In this document: positions 23,253-63,589 of the stretch, piece by piece
How positions within the stretch are numbered: the first letter of the stretch is position 1
How the letters are laid out: each line of letters starts with the position of its first letter
Origin: Hormiphora californensis
Taxonomy: Eukaryota > Animalia > Ctenophora
DNA length: 64,000 bases
NCBI GenBank assembly: GCA_020137815.1
Contig: CM035355.1
Span: 4,402,001-4,466,000 of the forward strand
Reading direction: 5' to 3'
The notes under the pieces: model-generated
Told to the model about the DNA's origin: nothing
The model's input: only the letters and a program-made list of their open reading frames with translations
Database searches by the model: none
Made by a program: the position numbers and the translations under genes

Positions 23253-23294
23253 GGGGGATAACTCTATCCGTTTCCATTTCTAAATATTTTCCTA

Positions 23295-30450: not shown

Positions 30451-33400
30451 GATGGGTAGAACACCATTACACATCTGAGGTGAGGTGAGATGGGCAGGAC
30501 ACCATTAGACAGGTGAGGTGAGGTGGGCAGGACACCATTAGACAGGTGAGGTGAGGTGGGTAGGACACCATTAGACAGGTGAGGTGGGGTGGGCAGGACA
30601 CCATTAGACAGGTGAGGTGGGTAGGACACCATTAGACAGCTAGGTGAGATGGGCAGGACACCATTAGACAGGTGAGGGGAGGGTGGGTAGGACACCATTA
30701 GACAGGTGAGATGGGCAGGACACCATTAGACAGGTGAGGTGAGATGGGTAGGACACCATTAGACAGGTGAGGTGAGGTGGGTAGGACACCATTAGACAGG
30801 TGAGGTGGGTAGGACACCATTAAACAGGTGAGGTGGGCAGGACACCATTAAACAGGTGAGGTGAGGTGGGCAGGACACCATTAGACAGGTGAGGTGAGGT
30901 GGGCAGGACACCATTAGACAGGTGAGGTGAGGTGGGTAGGACACCATTAGACAGGTGAGGTGAGGTGGGTAGGACACCATTAGACAGGTGAGGTGGGGTG
31001 GGCAGGACACCATTAGACAGGTGAGGTGAGGTGGGTAGGACACCATTAGACAGGTGAGGTGAGGTGGGCAGGACACCATTAGACAGGTGAGGTGAGGTGG
31101 GTAGGACACCATTAGACAGGTGAGGTGAGGTGGGCAGGACACCATTAGACAGGTGAGGTGGGCAGGACACCATTAGACAGGTGAGGTGGGTAGGACACCA
31201 TTAGACAGGTGAGGTGAGGTGGGTAGGACACCATTAGACAGGTGAGGTGAGATGGGTAGGACACCATTAGACAGGTGAGGTGAGGTGGGTAGGACACCAT
31301 TAGACAGGTGAGGTGGGCAGGACACCATTAGACAGGTGAGGTGAGATGGGTAGGACACCATTAGACAGGTGAGGTGGGCAGGACACCATTAGACAGGTGA
31401 GGTGAGGTGGGTAGGACACCATTAGACAGGTGAGGTGGGCAGGACACCATTAGACAGGTGAGGTGAGGTGGGCAGGACACCATTAGACAGGTGAGGTGAG
31501 ATGGGCAGGACACCATTAGACAGGTGAGGTGAGGTGGGTAGGACACCATTAGACAGGTGAGGTGGGCAGGACACCATTAGACAGGTGAGGTGAGATGGGC
31601 AGGACACCATTAGACAGGTGAGGTGGGCAGGACACCATTAGACAGGTGAGGTGAGGTGGGCAGGACACCATTAGACAGGTGAGGTGAGGTGGACACCATT
31701 AGACAGGTGAGGTGAGGTGGGCAGGACACCATTAGACAGGTGAGGTGAGGTGGGTAGGACACCATTAGACAGGTGAGGTGAGGTGGGTAGGACACCATTA
31801 GACAGGTGAGGTGAGGTGGGCAGGACACCATTAGACAGGTGAGGTGGGTAGGACACCATTAGACAGGTGAGGTGAGGTGGGCAGGACACCATTAGACAGG
31901 TGAGGTGGGGTGGGTAGGACACCATTAGACAGGTGAGGTGAGGTGGGCAGGACACCATTAGACAGGTGAGGTGAGGTGGGTAGGACACCATTAGACAGGT
32001 GAGGTGAGGTGGGTAGGACACCATTAGACAGGTGAGGTGAGGTGGGTAGGACACCATTAGACAGGTGAGATGGGCAGGACACCATTAGACAGGTGAGGTG
32101 GGCAGGACACCATTAGACAGGTGAGGTGAGGTGGGTAGGACACCATTAGACAGGTGAGGTGAGGTGGGCAGGACACCATTAGACAGGTGAGGTGGGCAGG
32201 ACACCATTAGACAGGTGAGGTGAGGTGGGCAGGACACCATTAGACAGGTGAGGTGGGCAGGACACCATTAGACAGGTGAGGTGAGGTGGGTAGGACACCA
32301 TTAGACAGGTGAGGTGAGGTGGGCAGGACACCATTAGACAGGTGAGGTGAGGTGGGTAGGACACCATTAGATAGGTGAGATGGGTAGGACACCATTAGAC
32401 AGGTGAGGTGAGATGGGCAGGACACCATTAGACAGGTGAGGTGAGGTGGGTAGGACACCATTAGACAGGTGAGGTGAGGTGGGCAGGACACCATTAGACA
32501 GGTGAGGTGAGGTGGGCAGGACACCATTAGACAGGTGAGGTGGGTAGGACACCATTAGACAGGTGAGATGGGCAGGACACCATTAGACAGGTGAGGTGGG
32601 TAGGACACCATTAGACAGGTGAGGTGAGATGGGTAGGACACCATTAGACAGGTGAGATGAGGTGGGTAGGACACCATTAGACAGGTGAGGTGAGGTGGGT
32701 AGGACACCATTAGACAGGTGAGGTGAGGTGGGTAGGACACCATTAGACAGGTGAGGTGAGGTGGGCAGGACACCATTAGACAGGTGAGATGGGCAGGACA
32801 CCATTAGACAGGTGAGGTGAGGTGGGTAGAACACCATTAGACAGGTGAGATGGGCAGGACACCATTAGACAGGTGAGGTGAGGTGGGTAGGACACCATTA
32901 GACAGGTGAGGTGGGTAGGACACCATTAGACAGGTGAGGTGAGGTGGGCAGGACACCATTAGACAGGTGAGGTGGGCAGGACACCATTAGACAGGTGAGG
33001 TGGGTAGGACACCATTAGACAGGTGAGGTGAGGTGGGTAGGACACCATTAGACAGGTGAGGTGAGGTGGGTAGGACACCATTAGACAGGTGAGGTGAGGT
33101 GGGTAGGACACCATTAGACAGGTGAGGTGGGTAGGACACCATTAGACAGCTAGGTGAGATGGGCAGGACACCATTAGACAGGTGAGGTGGGTAGGACACC
33201 ATTAGACAGGTGAGATGAGGTGGGTAGGACACCATTAGACAGGTGAGGTGAGGTGGGTAGGACACCATTAGACAGGTGAGGTGGGGTGGGCAGGACACCA
33301 TTAGACAGGTGAGGTGAGGTGGGTAGGACACCATTAGACAGGTGAGGTGGGTAGGACACCATTAGACAGGTGAGGTGAGGTGGGTAGGACACCATTAGAC

Positions 33401-36400
33401 AGGTGAGGTGAGGTGGGTAGGACACCATTAGACAGGTGAGGTGGGCAGGACACCATTAGACAGGTGAGGTGAGGTGGGCAGGACACCATTAGACAGGTGA
33501 GGTGAGATGGGCAGGACACCATTAGACAGGTGAGGTGGGCAGGACACCATTAGACAGGTGAGGTGAGGTGGGCAGGACACCATTAGACAGGTGAGGTGAG
33601 GTGGGCAGGACACCATTAGACAGGTGAGGGGAGGGTGGGTAGGACACCATTAGACAGGTGAGGTGGGCAGGACACCATTAGACAGGTGAGGTGGGTAGGA
33701 CACCATTAGACAGGTGAGGTGGGCAGGACACCATTAGACAGGTGAGGTGAGATGGGTAGGACACCATTAGACAGGTGAGGTGAGGTGGGCAGGACACCAT
33801 TAGACAGGTGAGGTGAGGTGGGTAGGACACCATTAGACAGGTGAGGTGAGATGGGTAGGACACCATTAGACAGGTGAGGTGAGGTGGGTAGGACACCATT
33901 AGACAGGTGAGGTGAGGTGGGCAGGACACCATTAGACAGGTGAGGTGAGATGGGCAGGACACCATTAGACAGGTGAGGTGAGGTGGGTAGGACACCATTA
34001 GACAGGTGAGGTGAGATGGGTAGGACACCATTAGACAGGTGAGGTGGGTAGGACACCATTAGACAGGTGAGGTGAGGTGGGTAGGACACCATTAGACAGG
34101 TGAGGTGAGGTGGGCAGGACACCATTAGACAGGTGAGGTGGGCAGGACACCATTAGACAGGTGAGGTGGGTAGGACACCATTAGACAGGTGAGGTGAGAT
34201 GGGCAGGACACCATTAGACAGGTGAGGTGGGCAGGACACCATTAGACAGGTGAGGTGGGTAGGACACCATTAGACAGGTGAGGTGGGTAGGACACCATTA
34301 GACAGGTGAGGTGAGGTGGGCAGGACACCATTAGACAGCTAGGTGAGGTGGGCAGGACACCATTAGACAGGTGAGGTGAGGTGGGTAGGACACCATTAGA
34401 CAGGTGAGGTGAGGTGGGTAGGACACCATTAGACAGGTGAGGTGGGTAGGACACCATTAGACAGCTAGGTGAGATGGGCAGGACACCATTAGACAGCTAG
34501 GTGAGGTGGGCAGGACACCATTAGACAGGTGAGGTGAGGTGGGTAGGACACCATTAGACAGGTGAGGTGGGCAGGACACCATTAGACAGGTGAGGTGGGT
34601 AGGACACCATTAGACAGGTGAGGTGAGGTGGGCAGGACACCATTAGACAGGTGAGGTGGGCAGGACACCATTAGACAGGTGAGGTGAGATGGGTAGGACA
34701 CCATTAGACAGGTGAGGTGGGCAGGACACCATTAGACAGGTGAGGTGAGGTGGGTAGGACACCATTAGACAGGTGAGGTGAGGTGGGTAGGACACCATTA
34801 GACAGGTGAGGTGGGTAGGACACCATTAGACAGGTGAGGTGAGGTGGGTAGGACACCATTAGACAGGTGAGGTGGGGTGGGTAGGACACCATTAGACAGG
34901 TGAGGTGAGGTGGGCAGGACACCATTAGACAGGTGAGGTGAGGTGGGTAGGACACCATTAGACAGGTGAGGTGAGGTGGGTAGGACACCATTAGACAGGT
35001 GAGGTGGGCAGGACACCATTAGACAGGTGAGGTGGGTAGGACACCATTAGACAGGTGAGGTGGGCAGGACACCATTAGACAGGTGAGGTGGGCAGGACAC
35101 CATTAGACAGGTGAGGTGGGTAGGACACCATTAGACAGGTGAGGTGGGTAGGACACCATTAGACAGGTGAGGTGAGGTGGGTAGGACACCATTAGACAGG
35201 TGAGGTGAGATGGGCAGGACACCATTAGACAGGTGAGGTGGGCAGGACACCATTAGACAGGTGAGGTGGGTAGGACACCATTAGACAGGTGAGGTGAGGT
35301 GGGTAGGACACCATTAGACAGGTGAGGTGGGTAGGACACCATTAGACAGGTGAGGTGGGGTGGGTAGGACACCATTAGACAGGTGAGGTGAGGTGGGCAG
35401 GACACCATTAGACAGGTGAGGTGGGTAGGACACCATTAGACAGGTGAGGTGAGGTGGGTAGGACACCATTAGACAGGTGAGGTGAGGTGGGTAGGACACC
35501 ATTAGACAGGTGAGGTGGGTAGGACACCATTAGACAGGTGAGGTGAGGTGGGCAGGACACCATTAGACAGGTGAGGTGAGGTGGGTAGGACACCATTAGA
35601 CAGGTGAGGTGAGGTGGGCAGGACACCATTAGACAGGTGAGGTGAGGTGGGTAGGACACCATTAGACAGGTGAGGTGAGGTGGGCAGGACACCATTAGAC
35701 AGGTGAGGTGAGATGGGTAGGACACCATTAGACAGGTGAGGTGAGATGGGTAGGACACCATTAGACAGGTGAGGTGAGCAGGACACCATTAGACAGGTGA
35801 GGTGGGTAGGACACCATTAGACAGGTGAGGTGGGCAGGACACCATTAGACAGGTGAGGTGAGGTGGGCAGGACACCATTAGACAGGTGAGGTGGGTAGGA
35901 CACCATTAGACAGGTGAGGTGAGGTGGGCAGGACACCATTAGACAGGTGAGATGGGCAGGACACCATTAGACAGGTGAGTGAGATGGGTAGGACACCATT
36001 AGACAGGTGAGGTGAGGTGGGTAGGGACACCATTAGACAGGTGCGAATGAGGCAGGACACCATTAGACAGGGTGAGGTGGGTAGGACACCATTAGACAGG
36101 TGAGGTGAGGTGGGTAGGACAACCAGTAGACAGGTGAGGTGAGGTGGGAGGGGCAAGGACACATTAGACAGGTGAGGTGGGTAGGAGACACCATTAGACA
36201 GGTGAGGTGAGGGTGGGCAGGACACCATTAGACAGGTGAGGTGTGGCCCCACCCCAAAAAGGAACACCATTAGAACAGGTGAGGTGGGTAGGACAACAAT
36301 TAGAGCAGTGTGAGGTGAGGTGGTAGGACACCATGAGACAGAGGTGAGGGTGGAGGGTGGGTAGGACACCATTAGAACAGGTGAGGTGAGGTGGGTAGGA

Positions 36401-39400
36401 ACACCATTAGACAGGTGAGGTGAGGTGGGAGGACCACCATTATGACAGGTGCAGGTGGGTAGGACCACCATTAGACACCATTAGGTGTGAGGTGGGAGAC
36501 ACCTTGACAGGGTGAGGTGGAGGTGGGCCATTAGACACCATTAGACAGTGAGTGGAGTGGCCATTGACAGGTGAGGGGGGAACACCATTAGACAGTGAGG
36601 TGGGGAGACACCATTAACAGGTGAGGTGAGGTGGGTAGGACACCATTATGAAGGGAGGTGGGCAGGACACCATTAACAGGTGAGGTGGAGGTGGGCAGGA
36701 CACCATTAGCAGTGTGAGGTGGGGACGACCAAAGACAGGTGAGGGAGTGGAGGACACCATTAGACAGGTGAGGTGAGGTGGAGGACAACCATTAGACAGG
36801 TGAGGTGGGGTAGGACACCATTAGACAGGTGGGTGAGTGGGCAGGACACCAAACAGGGTGAGGACCATTGGTGAGGTGAGATGGGGGACACCATGGTGAG
36901 GGTGGTGTGGACACTTAGACAGGTGAGGACATGGACAGGTGAGGGGGAGGCGACACCATTGACAGGTGAGGTGGGCAGGACCATTAGACAGGTGAGGTGG
37001 GTGGACACCATTAAAGGTGAGGGATAGGTGGGTAGGACACCATGAGAGTGAGGTGAGGGGTAGGACCTTAACGGTGATTGAGGTGGGTGAGCATAGAGGT
37101 GGACTTAGACGGTGACAGGTGAGGTGAGGTAGGACACCATTAGACAGGTGAGGTGGGGGTAGGACACCATTAGACAGGTGAGGGGGCAGGACACCATTAG
37201 ACAGGTGAGAGGTGGGAGACACCATTAGACAGGGGTGGGGTGGCAGGACACCATTAGACAGGTGAGGAGGCAGACACATTAGACAGGTGGGGAGGGCAGG
37301 ACCATTAGACAGGTGAGCAGTGGGGCAGGACACCATTAGAGGAGTGGGGCAGACCATTAGACAGGTGAGGTGGGTAGGGACACCATTAGACAGGTGGGTG
37401 AGGTGGGCAGGACACCATTAGACAGGTGAGGGGGGTCAGGACCCATTAGACAGTGAGGTGGTGGGCAGACACCATTAGACAGGTGAGGTGGCAGGACACC
37501 ATTAGACAAGTGAGGTGGGTAGGACACCATTAGACAGGGAGTGAGGTGGGCAGGACACCATTAGACAGGTGAGTGTTGGGCAGGACACAATTAGACAGGT
37601 GAGGTGAGGTGGGCAGGACACCATTAGACAGGTGAGTGAGGTGGGTAGGACACCATTAGACAGTGAGGTGAGGTGCGCAGGACACCATTAGACAGGTGAG
37701 GTGAGGTGGAGGACACCATTAGACAGTGTGAGGTGGTAGGACACCATTAGACGGTGAGGTGAGATGGGCAGGACACCATTAGACAGGTGAGGTGGTAGGA
37801 CACCCATTAGACAGGTGAGGTGAGGTGGGCAGGACACCATTAGACAGGTGAGGTGAGGTGGGCAGGACACCATTAGACAGGGAGGTGAGGTGGGCAGGAC
37901 ACCATTAGACAGGTGAGGTGAGGTGGGCAGGACACCATTAGACAGGTGAGGTGAGGTGGGCAGGACACCATTAGACAGGTGAGGTGAGGTGGGCAGGACA
38001 CCATTAGACAGGTGAGGTGAGGTGGGCAGGACACCATTAGACAGGTGAGGTGAGGTGGGCAGGACACCATTAGACAGGTGAGGTGGGTAGGACACCATTA
38101 GACAGGTGAGGTGAGGTGGGCAGGACACCATTAGACAGGTGAGGTGGGCAGGACACCATTAGACAGGTGAGGTGAGGTGGGCAGGACACCATTAGACAGG
38201 TGAGGTGAGGTGGGCAGGACACCATTAGACAGGTGAGGTGAGATGGGCAGGACACCATTAGACAGGTGAGGTGAGATGGGCAGGACACCATTAGACAGGT
38301 GAGGTGATGGTCAGGACACCATTAGACAGGTGAGGTGAGATGGGCAGGACACCATTAGACAGGTGAGGTGATGGTGGGTAGGACACCATTAGACAGTGAG
38401 GTGAGGTGGGGCAGGACACCATTAGACAGGTGAGGTGGGCAGGACACCATTAGACAGGTGAGGTGTGAGTGGGCAGGACACCATTAGACAGGTGAGGTGA
38501 GGGTGGGCAGGACACCATTAGACAGGTGAGGTGAGGTGGGCAGGACACCATTAGACAGGTGAGGTGAGGTGGGCAGGACACCATTAGACAGGTGAGGTGA
38601 GAATGGGCAGGACAGGACACATTATCCAGTGAGGTGAGGTGAGGGCCGGACACCATTAGACAAGGTTAGGTGAGTGGGCAGGGACCACCATTAGGACAGG
38701 TGAGGTGGGCAGGACACCATTAGACAGGTGAGGTGAGTGGGCAGGACACCATTAGACAGGTGAGGTGAGGATGGGAGGACACCATTAGACAGGTGATGGT
38801 GATGTGGGCAGGACACCATTAGACAGGTGAGGTGAGGGGGGTAGGGAACACCATAGAACAGGTTGAGGGGAGGGTGGGTAGGACACATTAGACAGGTGAG
38901 GTGAGCGCTGAGGTAGCGACACCATTTAGACAGTGAGGTGGGTCGGCACAATTAGACAGGTGAGTGGGTAGGACACCATTTAGACAGGTGAGGTGAGGTG
39001 GGCTAGGCACCCCATTGACAGGTTGAGGTTAGGTGCGGTAGGAACACCAATTAGATAGGTGATTGTGCAGGACACCATAGACAGGGGGTGAGGTGGGTAG
39101 GACACATAGACAGCCAGGTGAGATCGGGCAGGACACATAGACAGGTGAAGGTGAGTGGCAGCACCATAGAGGGGGGAGGAAAGGAGAAGGTGGTGAGGGA
39201 GGACCATGGAAGTGAGAGGTGGAGGACACGAAGAGAGAGAGTGAGGGGGAGGAGCACCTGACGGGGGGGCAAAGACGATATGGACGGGTGAAGGGAAGGA
39301 CACAAACGGTAGAGTGGTAGAGCCATAGAAGGCGAGGTGATCGGTGGGTGGACACCTTGCACAGTGAGGGGCAGGACCCACTGAGTGAGAGTGAGGGGCA

Positions 39401-40043
39401 GGACGATAAAAGCGGTGAGGTGGGTGACACCATTGACAGGTGCGGAATGGGCAGGAGGATCAAGTGAGGAGAAAGAACATTTAGACTAGGCCAAGTGGGT
39501 GATGGACACATTAACAGTTCGAGTAGGGCAAAACATAGCATTCAATGGGGACGTTGGAGACACTTACGAAGTAGTAGAAAGGTTAGGGAAACACTTATGG
39601 CAAGTGGTTCAGACCATTAGTAAGGTGAGGTGAATGGCAGATCCTTCGACAGGAGGGGGGGGCAGACATACATGAACGTGAGGAAGTGTGGCGGAAATAG
39701 ACCTGTGTAAATGGCAGGCCACCCGAAGGTGAGGACAGTGGTCAGGCACCAATTAGGCAAGTATGAATGGCAGACACCATAGACAGTAAGTATGGGCGAA
39801 CACTTAGACATAAGTGAGAGACAGACATCATTAGCAATGGTAGGGAGCCCATAAAGGCTAGTGAAGGCACGAAGACAGGAGAGGTGAGTGGCAGGACCAC
39901 TACAAGTGGTGGGGTAGCACCAGCAGGAGTAGGTGAGACACCATTGACAGGTGAGGGAGGTGGGTAGACACCATTAGACGGTGAGTAGGGGTAGGACACC
40001 ATAGACAGGTGAGTGGGTAGGACCCATTAGACAGGTGAGGTGG
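30451..40043. repeat. ~9.6-kb satellite of 28/33-bp units ggacaccattagacaggt(gaggt)1-2ggg(c/t)a, roughly 300 units
   Basis: Direct reading. Homogeneous at 30.5-36.0 kb and 37.8-38.3 kb; indel-rich at 36.0-37.8 kb and 38.6-40.0 kb. Confidence 0.99.
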
Positions 40044-41277
40044 TAGTACAAAGGCAAAGGAGGATCCATGGTGGGAGGAGAAAGACGAGGTAGAGCTGAG
40101 AAGACAAATAGAAACATTGAAGAGAGAGGCAGTGAGGAAGGAAGAGGAGTGGGGGCGGAGGGAAAAAAAATGAGGAGGGAATTGGCGGAGGAGAGGAAAT
40201 GGTCCGAGGCGAAAAGGTTAGAGGCTGAGCAGAGGGCAAAAGAGAGGGAGGATAAACTGCGGGAAAGGGTGTTGGCAGCAGAGAGGGCACTGGAGATGGA
40301 GAGTGGAGACGGAGAGCGGAGCGGATGAAAAAGGCCGGGAGGAGGATGACAGTGCCCATCGGTGGCGGGCACACATGGCCGTGAGGGGCGGGGAGTTCGT
40401 AACGGACGAAGAAAACGAACAGTTTGAGGAGGCATACGAGGCCAACAGTTGGCCGTGTGTGTGCCACACGGTGTGCAATCATTACCGGATAAAACGACCG
40501 GAATTACAACAAATGTCGTTTTGCACATCGTACGAATTTTACGCACAAGGTAATAACGAGACAATTATTGTTTATAGACAAATTTGTTTTAATATTTATT
40601 ATTTAATTTACCATATATGTATTATCATCATTTCAGATCCAAAGATCCGACAACATCCATCTTCAATGGAACCGATGAGGAAAGTGTTTACCAAGAGAGT
40701 AGAAGGCTCTCTCTGTTAAACATTATGGCGAGGCCATCCCGCGGAGGTGAGACAGGTCAGCGTGCAGGGCGCAAATGGCGGCTAACTATCTCCATATAGG
40801 GCAGTGGGCCAACAAGTTAATAGTGGAACTTGAAATGGTCCAGCCCAAAATAATAGAAAAAACATTTTATATTAGCAATACGGTTATCCTAAAATGCATC
40901 ATATAGGTCCTACATAGGTGATAGCAGCTATCTGGAACAGGGTGACGCTATTAGTGTGACACATGAAGGGACAGAGTCCTACTTGAAAATCTGTGGGAAT
41001 ATGCTTATCAGCTTAACAGCTTCCCAGGGAATGACATGAACAACAGGGACCTGCACGGAGCGGGTGCCCCCAGACCCAAGTGGACACCGAAACGGGAAAC
41101 GCAGGCCACGCGGAAGGGATGCTAGATATCCTTACTAGAAACTGAAGTTCCCACTTAATGTAACAAAATATGTAAATTGTATTTTGATGAGGTTCACCCC
41201 TCTACAAGAACAGAGAATGAGTCAGCAGTTCAGAGATTTGATGGAGCAGCTGGAAATCCATATGATTAACAGAGGAC

Positions 41278-42976: not shown

Positions 42977-45344
42977 TACTCACAAAAACGGAAACAGCAA
43001 GCAATAGGAAGAGGCAAGAGAAAAAGGACAAAGAAGAACATTCTTTCTCAAGTTCTTACTGATTTAATTTAATTGTGGACTAGAGACTAAAGATTAAAAT
43101 ATTTACAGGAGATCCATATTCTCTCGAACAATATGGACGATATATGAAGGTCGATTCAGAGACAAGATGTGTGGTTACCTCGCCCCTTACTTGCACAGCT
43201 ATGGATAACACCTTAGTTTCATTCGCCAAGAAATATCATCCCGCCCCGACCACGTTGAATGGCTGTCGTTTACATGCCCAATACATACAGTGTCGAATTT
43301 ATGAATACTCCATACTGGACACTAACCCAATTGCCATATTTACATAGAATATAGAGGTATAGAGGTACACGGAATATATAGAGGTACCTGGTACATGGAA
43401 TAAAGAGGTACATCGCCCTTTAAATATCATTTTGATCAGACGGTCCTCTCCGTTATAAGAGACTCAATCTAGGTAGAAGGCGCCGGACAATTTCAGTGGG
43501 ATAGGAAGGAAAAGATGACGAAACAAGCGCAAAAGTTTTACCGGGAAAATGTTGGTCCTCATTTTTACATCGCTTAGCTCTAGCACAGTACAATATAACA
43601 CTCGCATTTTGTATCGATATTTCATCTTTTTATCGTTATCTTTTTTGGTATCATTCATTATTTTCACGTATATTCTTTTTGTTGTCAATACGTTTATATC
43701 TTACTTTCCAGTTAATACCACAGGCAAGGGGAGAACTCGAGTACCTGCGACACAGGTGCAGGATTGGAAGAAAACTGTTAACATTCTTTTATTTACTCCA
43801 GGAAACGTGTGATTTTGTGTCTGAAGGTGCCCTGTCTCTTGCGAGAGCACCCTCCAGTACACTAAGGGAGGTACTCTAGTTTTCTCCAAGAATATTGGGG
43901 ATGAAATTGCACCAATTGAGCACCATGGAGACAATCAGCACACCGGACACGAAAACCTACTTCTTGAAATGGGCTGACTTCAAACTAATCCAAGCTGAAA
44001 AACAAATAATGTACGGAACGGGGGAGAACTATAAACAGTCGACCAATATATCAGGACACAGAGATGGCACAGGACTGATGATGGTTCACGGAACCGAATT
44101 AGAAATTAATGTCGACCTTATTAAAATTAACAGCGGAAAGAAGAGCAACGATGGGGGAGGCAAGAAAAGGCAAAGGAAAAAGGCATCGGGCAGACCACAC
44201 CCTACAACAGACGTGTGACACCCTGGATTATAAATGATAAAATAACTTTGTTGTTTGTATTTAAGGGAAGACAAAGGATAATCATAAAATAATCTATCCC
44301 GTATCCGATTCCCAAGATTGTTGATATAATGGGATCTTCGCCCAGGGTATTAATTCGAATTGGGAGAAAGGAAGAGTGGTTGGATTCATCCCCAAGTGAT
44401 ATGGTTTCTGCAACGATGAAACGTGCGATTTTGTGCCTGAAAGTCCCTGATATTGGTGAAGGAACCGACCTGTCACAGGTGTAATTCTACATGGAAAAAC
44501 CCAGCGCCAAATAAGAGTTAAAGGAAAGGACGCGAAAATACCGGTAAGTGGTGGAGGAGAAAGGTATCGGGCAGACCACCGCCAGCTATGTTGTGTCAGC
44601 GACTATGCTGGCAAATGATTATGGAGGAGGATGGACCCTGGGTGTAGGTGGTTCTGGACACCCCCTTAGGTATGCAGGAGGTCCGCATGGGAGGATTTGG
44701 AGAGAGGTTGGTAGTGCCTCACCAGAAGCACCCCGGCCCGCTGACCTTCTGCTTGGTGAACTCTGTAATAGCCCTGGTTGTGCCCCTGGAATTATGCTGG
44801 CAAATGATAACGGAGGGAGCTGGACCTTGGGAGTAGGGGGATAAAATAACAAACCTATAACATAATTGATAAATTAAATAAAGAGCTGATATAAGATAAT
44901 AACAATGCTAAAACGCCGGGACTACTACTTTTAAACAAAGTAGACGGAATGTCCAATTAGGGTTTACAGGCAGGTTAGCATTCCGAATTGAGGAATGGTC
45001 AATAGGACTAGGGGAGCTGGAGATGTAGATTCGGGGGTGGTAGATCTCTGGCTGTCACAAAACTCCTTATTCTTCAGGACAGGGGAAATAGAAGTAGGCC
45101 TCCGCACTAACTTTCTTTTACGAATATGTCTCCTAACCCATGATCTATCCAATTCCCAAGCTTACATACACTCCCTCCTTGAGAGGGAGCGGTAAAATAA
45201 CAATGCTATAAAATATAATATAATCACTGATAAAAACTGGTACACCAGGACTACCCCATTTAATTAAAAGTAGACTGAATGTCTCATGGAGCCCTGCAGT
45301 GTAATTGGAGAAGGTAAGTGACACCTAAACCATCAACCGACAAG

Positions 45345-45620
45345 ACAAATCGATTCTGCACTCTCCCCACAACGGCCTGAGAGGAGAGACTACAGCAACA
45401 TTTGGCAAACGGATGGACTGAACTAAGCGAGGACCCCTCCAACTCATTCCAGCTACAAGCCAACACTCTCCTAAAGACTTGCCTAAAGGAAGCAGATATA
45501 GGGGACGAATACCTAGTCACACGTCTGTCAACCAGATATTTCACCGCCCCAATCGTGTACCCACTCGCAAAGGACCACAAACCTGACTTCCCAAACACAA
45601 AGATGCGTGTGGTTCAGCCA
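45345..45620 (+). pseudogene. Penelope-like RT N-terminal fragment (second, deleted copy at 48945-49175)
   Basis: WTELSEDPSNSFQLQANTLL..APIVYPLAKDHKPDFPNTKMRVV matches YxxLxxDPxxxF...PxxYxLPKxHK..PxRxxV. Confidence 0.75.
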
Positions 45621-46212
45621 CAAAGCTATAAAATATAATATTATAATTGTAATAAAAACTGATACACCGGAACTACCCCAATTAAATGTAGACTGAATGT
45701 CTCATGGAGCCCTGCAGTGTAATTGGATGCCTACTACTACATAGGCCTATACAGATGCTACCGACAATCCCCACCGACACTTTCTAGGGAGGAAGCAGTT
45801 ATATCAGCCGTTTCTTTTTCCACCAGCCTTGGAATTTGTTGTAGCTGCAACAATTCGTGCAAAAGCAGTTGCGGCTGCAGAAAAAGTAAGATGACGTGCC
45901 AAAGAATGTTGCAATAACAAAGCCGCCGCCCAAAAGAGACTCCTAGAACTGTAATCAAGGGCTCAATAAGACTAGCGAAAGGGTTTATGGATAAGCATCG
46001 GGTTTCTTGAGTCAAACTAGATATAGACACAGCAGCAACACTGAAAAAACAGAGGAAGTTGTCTAAGGGACACGTATTCTAAATACCACTTAAATTACTC
46101 TGTTTGCTTTATTTGATCGTTTGATCAGCGGTAAAATAACAAAACCCTCCCCTATAACATAATTGATATATTAATTAAAAGGATGATTCATTCCAGAGAC
46201 CAATAACGAATA

Positions 46213-46385
46213 AGAACCGCTCACACTACCGTGGCCCTCATCAAGACTCTAGACAAGCTGAGAGAAAATTCCTGGTTTTCATCACCTGGTGTCCGGGACA
46301 CCACGGGATAGCAGGAAACGTGCGGACCAGTTGGCAAAAGCTGCTGCAGATGCTCCCCCTCCCACAGAACATTTCATCCCTGTAG
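46213..46385 (+). pseudogene. Non-LTR retrotransposon RNase H C-terminal fragment
   Basis: VFITWCPGHHGIAGN/ADQLAKAAA = WxPGHxGIxGNExADxLAK, with a frameshift. Confidence 0.8.
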
Positions 46386-47479
46386 GCAAGATATAAAGTT
46401 GCAGCCAAAACGTGGTCCTTAACACAGCTACCTCCAAGTCTTACTCAGTTGAAGGAAAAGTTGACATCACATCGACCAATCATCTGATTAGCTATGTTAC
46501 TCTCTCATCCAAGGCAGATCTCCAATCGCCAACTTTCTGATAAGAGCTGATATTATGATAAAAGAAGATATATAAATGTAATGCTAAAACACCGGGACAT
46601 TCCGGAGACCAATAACGAATAATAGCATCGGGTTTCTTGAGTCAAAACTAGATTTTTGTGAAGAAACACCGTATAGTGAGGTCCAAAAAGTTAAAAACTC
46701 AAAGTTTTGAGTCAGTGACTAATCGGCCCTAGTATAGTGATTCGGCTATTCTGCCATTTAGGGACTTTAATACCACGGGCAAGAAGTTATGTGCAGACTG
46801 TGTGATACACGTATTCTAAATATTATGGGATGGTAGTACCCGAACAACAGCAGCTTATCTATTGCAAGGCGTGCGGCTACTTCGGGCATATCACCGCGAT
46901 TTGTGGCAGATATATGGACTGAACAAGCGGGGCGCAACAGCACTAGACGGCGGGCAAAGGCGGCCAGGCGGGGGAACAGCGTTCAGAACTGCTCCATCCG
47001 TTGCAATACCCCTACGACAAGACGGTACCCCACCGTGACCACTACAAGGATGTCCCCTCAGGATGCCCGCAGGAAAGAGTCCCCACGGCCCACCCAAGTG
47101 AGAATAATTGATAAATCAAATAATGAGCTGATATAAGATAATAACAATGCTAAAACGCCGGGACTACTACTTTTAAACAAAGTAGACGGAATGTCCAATT
47201 GGGGGGGGGGGGCTGTGTCCAGTCAGCAGTAATAGAAACCTATATGAAGAAATAGAACCCCGGGCAAAGATCCAGAAACCACACGGGAAACCCGCCAGGA
47301 CAGACATCACGGGATTCCATGGATGTGAGTATGAAGAAGGAGAATGCATATACATATGATATATCCAATTCTCAAGCTTACATACACTCCCTCCTTGAGA
47401 GGGAGCGGTAAAAAAACAATGCTATAAAATATAATATAATCACTGATAAAAACTGGTACACCAGGACTACCCCATTTAA

Positions 47480-48851
47480 GGGTACGCTAACGCAGGGAAA
47501 TCTCTCACCGTAGGGTTGTAGGCCATGCCAAGGAGACCTCAAATATGCAATTTGAGCTCTCAAGTCGAATTCATATTTTTGCTACAGCTGTTTAAAAAAT
47601 GTCATGTAAATTCGTTTTTGGCATCTCAAAAAAATTTTTTTAAAGATAGGAGCATGAAAATTAGGGGATTTGAAGAGGACATGAAGGTGAATAACCACAA
47701 AAATTTTTTTTGCAATCCGAGCTGATTTCCGGTCCTGAGATGGATTTCTTTTTTTCCACTTTAACGCCCTATTTGGCAAAGTTCCGAAAACATGTGAAAG
47801 CTGTAAATTGGTGAAAAGTTGCGTCTAACGATTATCTAAGTGGCCATAAATTTTGGGCGTGTCCTTATTTGAGACAAGCTATACAGAGTTTTTTTTGTGA
47901 AAGCCGTCATTTCAGAAATAAATAAATTCCCTGTATCTCAAAAACGGCTGATCGTAGAGACCTGAGACTATGCTTAAGCGATTCAGAAGGTCCGATTTTG
48001 GGGGGGTCTTCTGAGAGACATTTTGCTCCTACTTCAACCGTTTTTGCTGTAATTGCGAAAAACAAATTCTATGAAAAGGGCAAAAGCTAAACTCCAATAT
48101 CCTGTAATTAGGGAATTTTGGCTAAGAAAGGACCGAAACTATGGAAAAATGTGTAACAAGCTAATTCCTTCACTATTTGGTCCATATGGGTCCCTATAAT
48201 CACCAAAAACAAAATCACAAAAAATCCACGATGGCGAAGATGGGTTTTTGTTTTTCGCAATTACAGCAAAAACGGTTGAAGTAGGAGCAAAATGTCTCTC
48301 AGAAGACCCCCCCAAAATCGGACCTTCTGAATCGTTTAAGCATAGTCTCAGGTCTCTACGATCAGCCGTTTTTGAGATACAGGGAATTTATTTATTTCTG
48401 AAATGACGGCTTTCACAAAAAAAACTCTGTACAGCTTGTCTCAAATAAGGACACGCCCAAAACTTATGTCCACTTAGATAATCGTTAGACGCAACTTTTC
48501 ACCAATTTACAGCTTTCACATGTTTTCGGAACTTTGCCAAATAGGGCGTTAAAGTGGAAAAAAAGAAATCCATCTCAGGACCGGAAATCAGCTCGGATTG
48601 CAAAAAAAATTTTTGTGGTTATTCACCTTCATGTCCTCTTCAAATCCCCTAATTTTCATGCTCCTATCTTTAAAAAAATTTTTTTGAGATGCCAAAAACG
48701 AATTTACATGACATTTTTTAAACAGCTGTAGCAAAAATATGAATTCGACTTGAGAGCTCAAATTGCATATTTGAGGTCTCCTTGGCATGGCCTACAACCC
48801 TACGGTGAGAGATTTCCCTGCACTCGAAAAAAAATTTTGGTTAGCGTACCC
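47480..48851. mobile_element. Kolobok-type foldback element, family A copy 2
   Basis: TTAA TSD (47476-79 / 48852-55). Near-identical to 11017-12406 apart from a ~17-bp deletion in the left TIR. Confidence 0.92.
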
Positions 48852-49369
48852 TTAAAAGTAGACTGAATGTCTCATGGAGCCCTGCAGTGTAATTGGAGAA
48901 GGTGACTGGTAACTGACACCTGAACCATCATCCTGACAAGACAAATCGATTCTGCACCCTCCCCACAACGGCCTAAGAGGAGAGACTACAGCAACATTTG
49001 GCAAACGGATGGACTGAACTAAGCGAGGACCCCTCCAACTCATTCCAGCTACAAGCCAACACTCTCCTAAAGACTTGCCTAAAGGAAGCAGATATTTCAC
49101 CGCCCCAATCGTCTACCCACTCGCGAAGGACCACAAACCTGACTTCCCGAACACAAAGGTGCGTGTGGTTCAGCCACAAAGCTATAAAATATAATATTAT
49201 AATTGTAATAAAAACTGATACACCGGAACTACCCCATTTAAATGTAGACTGAATGTCTCATGGAGCCCTGCAGTGTAATTGGATGCCTACTACTTCATAG
49301 GCCTATATTGATGCTACCGACAATCAAAGAACCCCACCGCAGGAAACTTCTTGTATTGTTCATACAAGG

Positions 49370-49530
49370 GACACTTCCTAGGGAGGAAGCAGTTGTAGCT
49401 GCAAGTGCCGTTTCTTTTTCCACCAGCCTTGGAAATTGTTGTAGCTGCAACAATTCGTGCAAAATCAGTTGCGGCTGCAGAAAAAGCAAGAGCAACCATC
49501 TATGCAGTGGCCCTGGCACCTGTGACCTCC
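49370..49530 (+). pseudogene. Cys-rich (CXC-like) C-terminal remnant of a transposon protein (second copy 45780-45900)
   Basis: LPREEAVVAAS..CCSCNNSCKISCGCRKSK..C..C. Confidence 0.4.
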
Positions 49531-50401
49531 GGCCAAAGAATGTTGCAATAGTATAGTGATTCGGCTATTCTGCCATTTAGGGACTTTACTACCACGGGCA
49601 AGAAGAGATGTGCAGACTGTGTGATACACGTATTCTAAATATTATGGGATGATTGTACCGGAACAACAACAGTACAGCTTATCTATTGCAAGGCGTGCGG
49701 CTACTTCGGCCATAGCAGGCAATGCAATCGAGAAAGAAGCGATAAAATCCTACATTATACAATTATACATCTTTAGCTTTCTTTTGTTTAGCAACAGCAA
49801 ACTCTTGTAATACCCCTAAAAGAGCCCCACCGCAGGAAACTTCCTAGGGAGGAAGCGATAAAATAACAAATCTATAACATAATTGATAAATTAAATAAAA
49901 GGCTGATAGAAGATAACAACATTGCTAATACACCGGGACTACTACTTTTAAACAAAGTAGACTGTGAATGTCTCATGGAACCCTGCAGTGTAGAAGGCAA
50001 CTGACACCTGAACCCAGCTCATAGGACATAGGAAACGGACTTCATCATAGTAAATGAGGTACTACTAGAACAGATAGTCATAACACTAATAAACAATTTG
50101 TAATTTAAGATTCAGAGAAGCAGTGGTCGTATTCACAGAAGAATGGAGTTAGTTCTGAAACCGCTGATAACAGTAGATGTACAAAAAGTAACACGTGAAG
50201 CTTGGCTTAAAGTCATTTTTCGTAAAAAACACCTGGTTTTATGTAAAGGCGAGGAAATCGCTCCTGGGCCGTAAAATAAGTGATAAAATAACAAATAACA
50301 TTTAATTGATAAAGGCTGATCAATATAGGAACGATGAAGACATAAAAAAGGCTGATACATAAAAGATTATAACAACACTGCTTACTGGTGTGTTTGAAGA
50401 A

Positions 50402-51305
50402 TAGTTAGGGGTAATAACACCGAATATCGCCTTGACTGGGAAAAAATTTGTGTCAAGCTAATTTCTTCACTAACGTGTCCCAATAGGTCCCCTCTAGCCC
50501 TCCTGAGTTTTTCATAACTCGGGATGGGGTGCAACATGTTCATTTCCGGGTGGGCGTGGTACCTGTATTTTCAGCCTGAGGCCAAAACCATAAGTACCCT
50601 TAAAATAGGAGTAGACATAAAATCGAGGGCACTAAAGTGATCAGCGTCCTCGCATTAGTGGGGGTAGGTGCCGGAATTAATTCTCTATCTCATCTGGTTA
50701 ATTAGATAATTGGATAATTAGGTTTGCACATAACCGTTTTTTGGCTATATGGCTATAGCCACTTAGGAATGGTTTAGAGACTTTTCACTGGCGCCATTTT
50801 GTAGGCAATAGCCAAGTTATGGGGGTCGAAGTCGGACTTTTAAGCTCTATCTCCAACCGTTGGAGATAGAGCTTAAAAGTCCGACATCGACCCCCCATAA
50901 CTTGGCTATTGCCTACAAAATGGCGCCAGTGAAAAGTCTCTAAACCATTCCTAAGTGGCTATAGCCATATAGCCAAAAAACGGTTATGCACAAACCTAAT
51001 TATCCAATTATCTAATTAACCAGATGAGATAGAGAATTAATTCCGGCACCTACCCCCACTAATGCGAGGACGCTGATCACTTTAGTGCCCTCGATTTTAT
51101 GTCTACTCCTATTTTAAGGGTACTTATGGTTTTGGCCTCAGGCTGAAAATACAGGTACCACGCCCACCCGGAAATGAACATGTTGCACCCCATCCCGAGT
51201 TTGGAAAAACTCAGGAGAGCTAGAGGGGACCTATTGGGACACGTTAGTGAAGAAATTAGCTTGACACAAATTTTTTCCCAGTCACACGACTACCGCCCCT
51301 AACTA
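50402..51305. mobile_element. Academ-type foldback MITE copy 1 (904 bp)
   Basis: Termini TAGTTAGGGG...CCCCTAACTA. 3-bp TSD GAA (50399-401 / 51306-08); the empty site ..ggaGAAggcaactgac occurs in scaffold copies at 53888 and 58378. Near-perfect internal palindrome 50432-51284. Confidence 0.85.
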
Positions 51306-52039
51306 GAAGGCAACTGACATCTGAACCCAGATGTCAAGGAGACTAACTGAACAGCCTATCAGAAACAGTGTTATAAAAACTGTCCGATCTGCATCTCGAG
51401 TGTCACATGACTTTGAGAATGACCAATGGGAGTGAGAGTGATATTTACAGGCCTGGTGTTGAATTAACGATTGCTTTGTATAAAATTGAACTTTTATCCT
51501 TCCGTGGCCAGTTCCATCCACGACTCCTGAACAACTTGTCTGAACCAGTTGGATCACTGTGTGGTTGCACTTAGGTCTCTTTTGGATCACTGAGTGTTTG
51601 TGCCTGGGTCTCTTTTGGATCACTGAGTGTTTTAACAAGACCCCCGTGCAGATGTCAAGGAGACTAGATGCCGACACCGAGTTCAGGGACTAATTGAACA
51701 TTGGCTGCCTGCTTTGTTCGGAGGACGACACCCCTGAGCCGGCGGTTACATTCAACTGGAGCAGTCTCAGAAACCATCCGCTCCAATACCCGTTTGACCG
51801 GACAGTTCCTCACCTAGATTTGTATAAAGACGTGCCATCGGGTTGCCCGCAGGAGAGGGCCCCGACCCAAAGAAGAACACTGGAGGATGGAATTCGGTCT
51901 CGATTACAGCACCTCCTCTCAGTACGCGCTCAAAGAGGCAGAGGAAGAGAAGCATGTGCAAAGGATGACCATGATCTATCCAATTCTCAAGCTTACATAC
52001 ACTCTCCCTTGAGAGGGAGCGGTAAAATAACAATGCTAT

Positions 52040-53314
<1,275 letters not shown>

Positions 53315-54465
53315 ATAATATAATATAATCGTGATAAAACTGGTGTAATTGGAGGTCTATACAGATGCCACCCACAATTGCAAAGAGCCCCACCGCAGGA
53401 AACTTCTTGTATTGTTCATACAAGGGTCGGTGTCACAGCACAAGAAGCTTTATAGGCAGGGATCAGCGGAAAAATAACAAAACCCTGCCCTATATTATAA
53501 TTGATAAATAAAATAAAAGGCTGATAGAAGATAATAACAATGCTAAAACACCGGGACTACTACTTTTAAACAAAGTAGACTGAATGTCTCATGGAGCCGG
53601 ATTCGGAGTTTCTTTAGGATTAGCCCTAGCTAAACCCCTAATAATGAGCAGATCAATAACAGGAATGACAACTTGCTAAATTGTTTCTAGCCACAAACGA
53701 ACCCAAATTCTTGGCTGCTATAACAGGATCACCGGCTATTGATTCGGCTATTGGTAAATTAAATAAAAGGCTGATAGAAGATAATAACAATGCTAAAACA
53801 CTGGGACAACTACTTTTAAACTAAGTAGACTGAATGTATCATGGAGCCCTGATATAGTTAGACACAACGCTGCTAACTGATGTAATCGGAGAAGGCAACT
53901 GACACCTGAACCCAGCTCAGTGTAAGCGGTAAATCATAATCTCATTATCTTGGGTAATTGAATTCCACTAACTAACCAATCAGCGATCTCTGTGAGTTGT
54001 CACGTGACACACACGTATATAGGTGTGGAGGGGAGGGGCTGAAGAGCGCTGATAATAATAAAAAGGTGTGTGACACCGTGTGTCTCGGTGCTAAACATGG
54101 AAATGATACCTGAGGATGGAGAAGTGGGTTGAACATGAGATACCAGTTATAATTTGGCACGTATATCTATGTGTGTGGAGGGGAGGGGCTGGAGAGACAC
54201 ACCTTATAATCATGGCTTGATCAGAGCCCAGATAATAAGGTGTGTCTTGGCGCATTCTTTCGGATAGCGAGGAGGAGAGAGTTCTGAACAGGATGGGGGC
54301 GGGATATGGGAAACCAAACTTCCCAACCATGCCCACAGAGATCAGTTATGACATCTCATATTAGAGCCTTTCTAAACGAGACAAAATCTCGTATGAGGCA
54401 GTTATAACTGCCTCCTATAGTTGGTAGATACTGGTCTAGAAAGATATTTCGACTCTAACTGCTGG

Positions 54466-55467
54466 TAGTTAGGGGTAATAACACCGAATATCGCCTTGAC
54501 TGGGAAAAAATTTGTGTCAAGCTAATTTCTTCACTAACGTGTCCCAATAGGTCCCCTCTAGCCCTCCTGAGTTTTTCCAAACTCGGGATGGGGTGCAACA
54601 TGTTCATTTCCGGGTGGGCGTGGTACCTGTATTTTCAGCCTGAGGCCAAAACCATAAGTACCCTTAAAATAGGAGTAGACATAAAATCGAGGGCACTAAA
54701 GTTATCAGCGTCCTCGCATTAGTGGGGGTAGGTGCTGGAATTAATTCTCTATCTCATCTGGTTAATTAGATAATTGGATAATTAGGTTTGCGCATAAACG
54801 TTTTTTGGCTATATGGCTATAGCCACTTAGGAATGGTTTAGAGACTTTTCACTGGTGCCATTTTGTAGGCAATAGCCAAGTTATGGGGGGTCGACGTCGG
54901 ACTTTTAAGCTCTATCTCCAACCGTTTAGTCGTTATGTGGCTTGAAAGTCGCTCAAAATTAGCAAAAAACGGTAAAAAGCCCGATTTTGAGCGACTTTCA
55001 AGCCACATAACGGCTAAACGGTTGGAGATAGAGCTTAAAAGTCCGACATCGACCCCCCATAACTTGGCTATTGCCTACAAAATGGCGCCAGTGAAAAGTC
55101 TCAAAACCATTTCTAAGTGGCTATAGCCATATAGCCAAAAAACGGTTATGCGCAAACCTAATTATCCAATTATCTAATTAACCAGATGAGATAGAGAATT
55201 AATTCCGGCACCTACCCCCACTAATTCGAGGACGCTGATCACTTTAGTGCCCTCGATTTTATGTCTACTCCTATTTTAAGGGTACTTATGGTTTTGGCCT
55301 CAGGCTGAAAATACAGGTACCACGCCCACCCGGAAATGAACATGTTGCACCGCATCCCGAGTTTGGAAAAACTCAGGAGGGCTAGAGGGGACCTATTGGG
55401 ACACGTTAGTGAAGAAATTAGCTTGACACAAATTTTTTCCCAGTCATACGACTACCGCCCCTAACTA
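54466..55467. mobile_element. Academ-type foldback MITE copy 2 (1002 bp)
   Basis: Same TAG...CTA termini. 3-bp TSD TGG (54463-65 / 55468-70). Keeps ~97 bp of the centre that copy 1 lacks. Confidence 0.87.
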
Positions 55468-55968
55468 TGGTTAGAGTTTGAACCATTACCGGCTACTAGT
55501 GGTGCGAGTGATGGTGCTCACGACTGGCCTCTCTGGGATTTAATGACAGAGGTAGACAGCTCAAGTGTCTGTGAGCTGTCACGTGACACACACACATATG
55601 TGTGGAGGGGAGAGCCCTGAATCCTGATAATAAGGTGTGTCTCGGTGCTAAACATGGAAATGATGGCTGAGGATGAAGAAGTGGGTTGAACATGAGATAC
55701 TAGCCAGTTATAATTTGAGTAACCCATCCTTATTTTCTAGATATCTGTTTAATAAGCGGCGTTCTTGAAAACTTGCCGAAAAGGAAGCCAAGCCAACTAC
55801 ATCGACTCGTTAAGGGAAAGACAAAGGATGAAATAATCCGATTCCCAAGACAAACAAAGGCAAACAAAGAGGATTAAAGTACATACACACCCTTTGGAGT
55901 GAGCGGCAAAATAACAAAGCTATAACATAATTGATAAAAGCTGACAATAGATAATAACAATGCTTTAA

Positions 55969-55997
55969 GGGTACGCTAACCAAAACATTTTTTCGAG
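55969..55997. mobile_element. Orphan Kolobok family A-like left end
   Basis: TTAA + gggtacgctaaccaaaacattttttcgag, then diverges. Confidence 0.6.
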
Positions 55998-56037
55998 CCT
56001 AATTGGAAATTCTCCACACAGCATTATGACTTCAAAC

Positions 56038-56436
56038 ATGGTGTCAAGTAGCGAGGAGGAGAGGCAGACAACGGCGGTGGGGGAGGCAAGGGAGCCCACG
56101 TGCGGGAGGAAGGGATGTAACAGGCACGTCACCCTGCAGGATGGGAGGTTATGGTTGGTCAGGGTGTGCATTACTTGCTTTGAGGACCTGGAAGGGAACG
56201 AGGCGGACATCAGGATGGGGAGAGCAGTATTAGATATAGAACTGGAAGGATACAGCCAGGCAGAGTCCTTTAGAAGGATCTTGACAAGGGCACGGGGCGG
56301 GCTCGACAGCATTATGGGGAGGGCTCAAATGGCGGCGTATTACCTTCATAGGGCGGAACGAGGTGCAAACACATTAATAGAGGAACTAGGATTGGCACAG
56401 GAGGTACTTAGAGAACTTAGGGGACGGGCGGTATAG
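56038..56436 (+). CDS. Unknown Cys4 (Cx4C-x15-16-Cx2C) plus helical protein; diverged homolog at ~58705-59010
   Basis: CGRKGCNRHVTLQDGRLWLVRVCITCFEDLEG.. aligns without gaps to CGRRDCNRRVGPEDGRLWKVRLCIWCFEDLEG.. over ~100 aa. Substitutions look conservative and neither copy has a stop. Confidence 0.55.
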   Translation: MVSSSEEERQTTAVGEAREPTCGRKGCNRHVTLQDGRLWLVRVCITCFEDLEGNEADIRMGRAVLDIELEGYSQAESFRRILTRARGGLDSIMGRAQMAAYYLHRAERGANTLIEELGLAQEVLRELRGRAV

Positions 56437-56623
56437 GGGAGGTCAATCAAAATAAGCACTTTTATAATTGTACATTCAATTCAGAGTAATTTATTGAAAA
56501 TGCTGTGTCACTTACACCACCCGCCTAGATTATATGTGTCTATCTCTATCTCTCCTTTTCGTGCTCTCTTTTCTCGTTATCCTTCACACTCTTTCTTTCA
56601 CTCCCACTTTCTCTTTCCCTTAA

Positions 56624-57092
56624 AGTGAGAGTGGACCGAATCAGAATTGGACAAGTTTGTTATAGGTAGTAGAGAATAGCTCTCTGAGCATTTTGCCTTT
56701 TTGCCGCTCAAAATCGACCCACCCATCACTGAGATATTTTTGTTATGTTGGGAGAATTCCTGCTGGATCAGTATTTATCAAACAAGATAGAAACAATCCT
56801 TGTGTTTTACTAACACATTCTTTAAATTTTTAATATGCTGGCTTGCATTGCCCGGCTTCTGTGCATGGACATGTTAACCTCACTGCTTATATTCAGAATG
56901 TGTTAGTAAAACACTACGATTGTTTCTATTCTGTTTTATACATACTGATTAAACAGGAGTTCTCCCAACATAACAAAAATATCTCAGTGATGGGTGGGTC
57001 GATTTTGAGTGGCAAAAACGCAAAATGCTCAGAAAGCTAATCTCTACTACCTACAACAAACTTGTCCAATTCTGATTCGGTCCACTCTCACT
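56624..57092. mobile_element. Kolobok-type MITE, family B (469 bp)
   Basis: TTAA TSD (56620-23 / 57093-96). Ends AGTGAGAGTGGACCGAATCAG...CTGATTCGGTCCACTCTCACT. ~200-bp imperfect TIRs. Confidence 0.88.
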
Positions 57093-57096
57093 TTAA

Positions 57097-57248
57097 CCTC
57101 TTTTTCTCACTCTTCTCTCGCCCTCCCTGTTTCTCCCCTTTTTCACCCTCTCTTTATCCCTCTCTCTCTCCCTCTCTCTCTTTTATCTCTTCCTCATTCT
57201 CTCACTCTAATCTATACCTTTCCCGCGCTCCCTTTTCCCACAATTTGC

Positions 57249-57311
<63 letters not shown>

Positions 57312-57365
57312 TCTCTCTTTCCCTTTCTCGCTTTGCTCTCTCGTTTCTCTCTCTTTACTTTCTCG
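57097..57365. repeat. CT-rich low complexity with (CT)n core 57249-57306
   Basis: Direct reading. Continues the CT-rich tract 56540-56620 that the Kolobok MITE splits. Confidence 0.9.
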
Positions 57366-57782
57366 ATATGACCCCTTCCCATTTATACAAATTACTTACT
57401 ATAACTTAACCATCCCTCTGTATATTTTCAAAGTATCTTCGCAATGAACCAATCAAGAATGAACAGGTGGCAGGCGGCGGCAGTGGAAGGAAAGGGGGCG
57501 GAGGCGGCGGTAGGAGGAGCGGCGGCGGAGGCAAAGGAGAACATTAGAAGATGGTGTTCGGTCACGACTACAGCACCTCCTCTCAGTACGCGCTCAAAGA
57601 GGCAGAGGAAGAGAAGCATGTGCAAAGGAGAACATTAGAAGACGGAGTACGGTCCCGCCTACAGCACCTCCAAGGAGGTAGAGGTAGAGGCAGCCAGATT
57701 TATTATCAAGAGAAGCATGTGCAAAGGATGACCATGATCTATCCAATTCCCAAGCTTACATACACTCTCCCTGTAAAATATA

Positions 57783-62567: not shown

Positions 62568-62598
<31 letters not shown>

Positions 62599-63510: not shown

Positions 63511-63589
63511 ATTATAATGTGATAATTTATAACTTAAATAAATAAACTAAGGGTCGAAGCAACCATTCCTCCGCCGTTATTATCTTAAG

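Follow-up and report, generated by a model that had tools for sequence, protein, structure and literature searches.

Same flanks, different middles: one repair-associated replacement as the best reading of two scaffold copies in a ctenophore patchwork repeat

Why should two nearly identical copies of one repeat carry unrelated sequence in the same place? The question is raised by an AT-rich scaffold of about 200 bp in the genome of Hormiphora californensis (contig CM035355.1, positions 4,402,001 to 4,466,000; this whole stretch of 64,000 nucleotides is the window, and all coordinates refer to it). Two copies of the scaffold share a left flank and a right flank (R), between which one holds a middle of 181 bp (M1) and the other a middle of 155 bp (M2, 47201-47355, beginning with 12 G). 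A sequence-only reading of the window took this as site-specific replacement, or as independent capture, at a fixed position. We conclude that the observation is real and mostly supported by reads, and that it is best explained by known repair and capture processes within an unclassified patchwork repeat. A programmed cassette-swapping system is probably not behind the differing middles. The two copies are made up as follows.

44842-44958, plus strand: left flank of scaffold copy 1, with a hairpin of 7-bp stem at 44925-44943
44959-45139, plus strand: middle M1, 181 bp, the common and likely ancestral form
45140-45192, plus strand: right flank R of copy 1, with a hairpin at 45171-45189
45193-45891, plus strand: rest of copy 1, in the order scaffold variant, module P, scaffold variant, module Q
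47104-47200, plus strand: left flank of scaffold copy 2, matching copy 1 at 95 of 97 positions
47201-47348, plus strand: donor-derived part of middle M2, opening with the 12 G
47349-47355, plus strand: filler of 7 bases between the donor-shared part of M2 and R
47356-47479, plus strand: R and scaffold variant of copy 2, matching copy 1 at 121 of 124 positions
47480-48851, no strand assigned: later insertion of 1372 bp between two TTAA copies, with inverted arms of about 575 bp (4 mismatches)
48852-49491, plus strand: continuation of copy 2, matching 45264-45891

The basic observation was confirmed throughout. The left flank motif ends at 44958 in copy 1 and 47200 in copy 2, R starts at 45140 and 47356, and the lengths of the middles and the G-run start of M2 are as first described. 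Copy 1 departs from the scaffold consensus at 44953, and its last 5 bases are common to copy 2 only. Past the 1372-bp insertion, copy 2 resumes in register with copy 1, with 570 matches, 18 mismatches and 8 gaps over about 630 bp. The two middles are unrelated, as had been claimed: their best local alignment scores 18, a value matched or beaten in 27.6% of 500 shuffles. Duplication and point mutation are indeed insufficient to explain the pair; a block was replaced. No second copy of either M1 or M2 occurs within the window. Open frames spanning M1 or M2 (57-67 codons) are within chance, and none of 4 candidates among longer proteins proved related to the 45-amino-acid frame of M2.

The stretch was found in six public runs from two samples, five of which were examined (X1, X2, X3, X5 and X6); the runs that match it best may derive from the same sample as the window. 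All are short-read contigs, filtered in such a way that rare forms and branches were dropped; their depth is a rough guide and not a copy number. A joint was counted as bridged where a contig had at least 31 bases on each side of it. By this rule, the left joint of M1 is bridged in four of the five runs (X1, X2, X3 and X5) and in both samples, with no differences in X1, X2 and X5. M1 lies on a single unbroken contig in X2 (44883-45167, 0 differences, depth 154.9) and was also identified in X1, X3, X5 and X6; contigs of M1 with its left flank have depths of 154.9, 68.2, 122.7 and 582.1 across four runs. At the right joint of M1, contigs of X2 and X6 extend 28 bases into the right flank, just short of the 31-base rule. 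The right joint of M2 is bridged by an 84-base contig without differences in X1, X2 and X3 (three of four runs, one sample), at depths of 32.5, 13.6 and 24.4, about one fifth of those of M1. No cover of M2 was found in X5 and X6, which is weak evidence in filtered contigs. Thus M1 is common and M2 rare. The junctions, which the sequence-only reading had allowed might lack read support, are mostly supported; its concern holds for the left joint of M2, unbridged among the pieces listed.

Part of M2 was also found in other contexts. The last 52 donor bases (47297-47348) occur after a variant of the scaffold start in X1 and X3, and before another, 255-base sequence in X2. The last shared donor base is 47348, so that 47349-47355 is left over as a 7-base filler. 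No joint skipping M1 or M2, which would represent an empty slot, was present in any run examined, although such contigs drop rare forms. Also lacking, in the window and the contigs, is a third middle with both flanks.

A third sequence, M3, does precede R in two further copies:

51774-52039, plus strand: copy 3, a coding remnant (H') that continues in frame into M3 (51868-51968), with R after it; left scaffold absent
57532-57767, plus strand: copy 4, two tandem M3 heads joined by a 7-base microhomology, then R; no left scaffold

M3 (51868-51968 and 57532-57731) joins R 2 bases earlier than M1 and M2 do, and its first 48 bp are an in-frame continuation of the coding remnant. The earlier observation of a third sequence ahead of R thus stands, but since neither carrier has the left scaffold flank, M3 does not count as a third occupant of the slot. 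M1, M2 and M3 meet R within 2 bases (45138-45140), and this near-coincidence is what survives of the proposed fixed position; the rest of that proposal is unsupported. The three share no terminal motif and no significant sequence. M2 as a diverged homolog of M3 was ruled out (p 0.38 and 0.79). Also rejected was M1 as an insertion that duplicated a 7-bp target, TCCAATT, which closes the left flank (44952-44958) and is present again at 45148-45154: no inverted ends, poly(A) or empty site were identified, and the 8 bases preceding the second TCCAATT are common to the M3 copies.

The scaffold has 16 matches in the window, all on the plus strand, and their alignments start or stop at about 18 distinct positions along a 226-bp reference (an approximate count, because indel borders and insertion sites account for part of them). 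The chance that a new breakpoint placed at random lies no more than 5 bases from such an end is 0.59. The many differing start and stop points indicate that there is no single fixed slot. Site-specific replacement is countered by these scattered ends, by the contrast between a common M1 and a rare M2, by the lack of an empty slot, by a filler that lies within an inverted repeat, and by the lack of a duplicated target or recombination core. As one replacement event suffices, two independent captures are not needed.

The right joint of M2 lies exactly midway between two arms (47329-47355 and 47356-47385) that form an imperfect inverted repeat and match in 23 of 30 columns. Of 46,298 unmasked positions in the window, 175 reach the score of this repeat (13), as do 0.24% of 20,000 shuffles (p about 0.002-0.004, before correction for six junctions and for post-hoc choice); the five other junctions tested score 4-7. 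The filler matches the reverse complement of the start of R with one gap, and the excess in score is due to the filler and two flank variants, the pattern expected from inverted templated synthesis or from later correction of a palindrome. At the left joint, M1 opens with AGGG and M2 with 12 G, so the left switch may fall in a G tract. Five other G or C runs of 12-21 bases are present in the window. In coding-like sequence, G runs of 12-16 bases (1802-1845 and 2565-2580) occur where a paralog (3340-3365) has a short G tract, so a short tract can lengthen into a long run in this DNA.

The reading we lean towards, without great confidence, is that copy 2 once carried M1 and lost it in a single event of break repair or template switching, in which 148 bases were copied in from another repeat sequence. 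We infer that M1 is ancestral, that there was a single replacement, and that the filler was templated. The scaffold-M1-R unit would have been multiplied many times before a break or stalled fork in one copy led to the loss of M1. Synthesis would then have jumped to the donor, probably primed at the short G tract that opens M1, with later growth of the tract to 12 G. The new end may have been lengthened by a few bases copied in inverted orientation from the end of R and joined to R by end joining of the polymerase-theta type, and the TTAA-flanked inverted-repeat element would have inserted 124 bp downstream afterwards. Inserts templated next to a break, and gap filling that captures sequence by microhomology or with de novo bases, have been described (PMC4490562, PMC5728401, PMC8277862). 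Copies 1 and 2, alone among 9 exact scaffold matches, have a T-to-G change that pairs with a 7-mer of M1, which weakly hints that copy 2 formerly carried M1. The contig upstream of copy 2 (46856-47154) stops exactly where the M1 contig starts, and in all three runs the M1 contig is deeper than it would be if the whole of that path left at 47200 (154.9 vs 118.1, 68.2 vs 60.1 and 122.7 vs 106.4), depth being a rough guide. Also in favour of this reading are the distribution of M1 and M2 among the runs, the other neighbours of part of M2, the inverted repeat centred on the M2/R joint, the scattered scaffold ends, the microhomology switch in copy 4 and the mostly direct shuffling of short modules in four other blocks of the window.

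Several points weigh against this scenario. Compared with shuffles, the T-to-G change pairs only weakly with M1 (z -1.88, 10 of 200). The inverted repeat at the M2/R joint was first noticed in a fold and tested afterwards; its folding energy is ordinary (z -1.58, 14 of 200 shuffles), and the donor-native part alone, compared with the flank of copy 1, is not significant (p 0.10). Microhomology at the left end of M2 is deduced with the donor locus not recovered. The left joint itself (47200/47201, at the G run) is bridged by none of the 32 pieces listed of 69. In X2, the M1 depth of 154.9 is closer to the value expected if all upstream copies enter M1 (153.8) than if one leaves for M2 (127.2). 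Finally, a single random replacement does not account for a right end that falls within 2 bases of the M3/R joint, for which a rough hand estimate gives 2-10%.

This last point bears on an alternative that we regard as possible, though not likely: nicking or pausing that recurs at one site. Rolling-circle, Helitron-like replication by the mobile element itself would stall at the hairpins on either side of the slot, and different sequences would be captured repeatedly at nearly the same place. We give it this weight because M1, M2 and M3 all join R within a span of 2 bases and because hairpins lie 15 bases ahead of the left joint and 31 bases past the right joint. The surroundings are also consistent with such a process. 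The region 43700-58750 is a patchwork of about 15 kb, with modules of 30-600 bp in varying order; with later insertions set aside, its repeat pairs comprise 79 direct pairs and 2 local palindromes. All 79 dispersed pairs are direct, with no dispersed inverted pair outside the later insertions. Among the modules are remnants of unrelated coding sequences, including zinc-knuckle-like and RNase-H-like pieces (Pfam E 0.003 and 0.15, both below cut-off). Against a hotspot, hairpin-plus-CTRR|T ends number 1 in unmasked sequence and 0-4 in 20 shuffles, and none was found at scaffold or R copies in a scan for CTRR, a scan that leaves CTRY-type and Helentron-type ends outside. No RepHel match, and no Rep or helicase family, was identified by Pfam in 171 open frames (25 + 146), mostly on the plus strand (just 2 on the minus strand, against 185 minus-strand frames of at least 52 amino acids), and a recurrent hotspot is not borne out by any third middle with both flanks.

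It is unlikely that misassembly at the poly-G produced the left joint of M2, with M1 in the real copy 2 and the real M2-R piece coming from another locus. This would fit the lack of a listed contig over the joint and the X2 contig of M2, which begins at the first G. It would also fit the upstream contig, which runs into the M1 contig, and the X2 depth, which agrees with full passage into M1. The indel-rich decay of a satellite at 36500-40000 also suggests an imperfect consensus in the assembly. However, rare branches are dropped from the contigs, of which only a part was listed, and long G runs often break short-read contigs. The X1 depth is consistent with one low-depth branch leaving for M2 (70.3 vs 68.2), with X3 intermediate between the X1 and X2 patterns. 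Both sides of the joint match contigs with zero or one difference, and the assembly carries five other long G or C runs. The depth arithmetic indicates that at least part of the path upstream of copy 2 continues into M1 in all three runs; the copy-2 locus may be polymorphic for M1 and M2.

We find it quite improbable that M1 and M2 are complementary deletion products of a longer ancestor (scaffold, M2, an intervening sequence, M1, R), an outcome that the sequence-only reading had named as its refutation. The M2 donor does run on into the different 255-base sequence past 47348, and an X6 contig that starts exactly at 44958 could mean a second upstream neighbour of M1, but that start is equally explained by a variant 30 bases downstream. 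None of 14 contig joints between modules links M2 to M1, and in the one sample with M2 the M1 contig passes its left joint without branching. A 15-base motif, taken from the sequence into which the donor continues, has only one match in the window, with 3 mismatches and attributable to chance.

Very doubtful is the idea of programmed exchange at the scaffold, by which an unclassified eukaryotic mobile element would use its own nuclease to swap modules of 100-300 bp repeatedly, including pieces of an orphan gene family, at hairpin-bracketed slots in an integron-like array. To our knowledge, no eukaryotic element swaps cassettes at a defined site in such a manner. The resemblance to integron cassette arrays lies in the variable blocks between conserved, hairpin-bearing flanks; the differences are that no integrase, repeat per cassette or empty site was found, that the joints are imprecise and that the DNA is of eukaryotic type. 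A site-specific, integron-like cassette system that swaps modules at a defined site, to which the conserved flanks, the hairpins near both ends and the 7-mer on both sides of M1 might point, is the least credible explanation and largely refuted: no recombinase matched in the window frames scanned (mostly plus-strand), the contigs hold no empty site, M1, M2 and M3 have no terminal motif in common, the joints differ by 2 bases and one has filler, scaffold breakpoints are scattered, and the M3 copies lack the left flank.

Closer parallels to the proposed template switch are found among known capture and repair processes. Gap filling in Pack-TIR and Pack-MULE elements and FoSTeST (PMC8277862) resemble it in that a foreign block of about 150-200 bp replaces the interior of a repeat by template switching; the median duplicated size reported for capture by Pack-TIRs (TIR, terminal inverted repeat) is 224 bp. 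Such captures also join by microhomology on one side and through de novo bases on the opposite side, and are later re-amplified (PMC8277862); the 7-base filler and the 7-base microhomology in copy 4 are joints of this kind. Unlike a Pack-TIR, however, the patchwork has no enclosing terminal inverted repeats or target-site duplication that we could find, its donor is seemingly another repeat rather than a host gene, and many serial events are involved, not one. Polymerase-theta end joining, including snap-back synthesis-dependent microhomology-mediated end joining (PMC4490562, PMC5728401), likewise produces a deletion with a short insert that forms a new inverted repeat at the joint, but typical products are small, and an insert of 148 bases from a distant donor requires a longer template switch. 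Varied module combinations, captured blocks and hairpins near module borders are shared with modular non-autonomous Helitrons, among them AtREP21 (PMC2955051), and with the chimeric Helitrons of bats (PMC4224331, PMC4778049). AtREP21 retains fixed end modules (PMC2955051), whereas none were found in the patchwork; the scaffold copies also lack 5'-TC and hairpin-CTRR-3' ends, no A|T insertion site is evident, and no RepHel remnant was matched among the mostly plus-strand frames scanned. For Penelope-like elements and Terminons, no hammerhead family was detected at E <= 1 in 41000-64000; one match to the hammerhead core pattern, at 44075, is outside the scaffold. As Helitron 3' ends are no commoner than in shuffles, and as no enclosing inverted repeats, no hammerhead and, among the 171 frames, no recombinase or RepHel were found, we file the patchwork under none of these element families. 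Our working model is that it spreads by capture and re-amplification, as Pack-TIRs or Helitrons do.

Module order also varies among copies outside the window, as shown by the 14 contig joints. In X6, the region 44300-47480 is covered by only 21 contigs, mostly at depths of 390-800, as though a single uniform version of the patchwork had undergone strong amplification there. Short modules are also shuffled in five more blocks, which have sequences of their own (848-8366, 12427-15201, 18252-25706, 25939-28905 and 61185-63522). Four of these are mostly direct (direct to inverted pairs of 5:1, 13:2, 5:1 and 9:0) and a fifth is mixed (20:14). Judging by these five blocks, we suggest that shuffling is common in the host genome.

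The window as a whole appears to be non-coding, repeat-rich DNA of eukaryotic type. Its longest open frame has 199 amino acids, and it includes microsatellites, several inverted-repeat insertions and an 8.7-kb satellite (30478-39155; 33-bp unit, about 275 copies), whose indel-rich decay past about 36500 may reflect poor consensus or real erosion. The element inserted at 47480 belongs to a TTAA-flanked family with long inverted arms of 575-609 bp (47480-48851, 11013-12412, 26503-26820 and 55964-55997), and is young, with only 4 mismatches between its arms. A second foldback family, with arms of about 430-460 bp, is present at 50402-51305 and 54466-55467 (about 98% alike). Rfam gave 14 matches in 41000-64000, all to microRNA models below gathering score and located on palindromes or microsatellites. 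The R motif has no match in viral contigs. An 18-mer of the scaffold matched 28 loci in metagenome contigs, none with more than 19-33 bases in common with the window, and these matches were judged to be chance.

Two families of orphan coding sequences were also noted. One includes a remnant upstream of copy 2:

46994-47086, plus strand: coding remnant H, with its paralog at 51774-51866

Over 30 codons, H and its paralog have 16 synonymous and 5 non-synonymous differences and 9 identical codons; with 16 of 21 changed codons synonymous, H is a real coding remnant. The family (46994-47086, 51694-52062 and 57532-57671) differs mainly at synonymous positions and has no Pfam match. The other is a cysteine-motif protein family in three paralogous pieces (58696-59100, 56089-56433 and 40766-40838), two of which are 59% identical. 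A search of 1.84 billion sequences with the open reading frame (ORF) at 58660-59211 gave 2 matches: an unnamed 157-amino-acid protein (E 6e-6, 35%) and a TPR protein judged to be chance. A four-sequence profile recovered only the same 157-amino-acid protein among 1414 candidates, and none of 31 candidates was related to the ORF at 56026-56433. No relatives were found in viral contigs, and the Atlas gave no usable match. The cysteine-motif family may represent an accessory gene from whichever element or virus family underlies the patchwork. Also present, at 6174-6503, is a fragment of an Endonuclease VII domain that scores above cut-off (Pfam PF02945, E 2.3e-6) and is of the type known from Maverick/Polinton-like genes.

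Read as a single template-switch replacement, the two copies provide a worked example of the growth of a patchwork repeat, in which one can see the common module and its rare replacement, together with part of a donor and a repair scar. Such a case is useful for repeat annotation and is not surprising. It would matter if copies across the genome had many different middles with ends fixed at the same bases.

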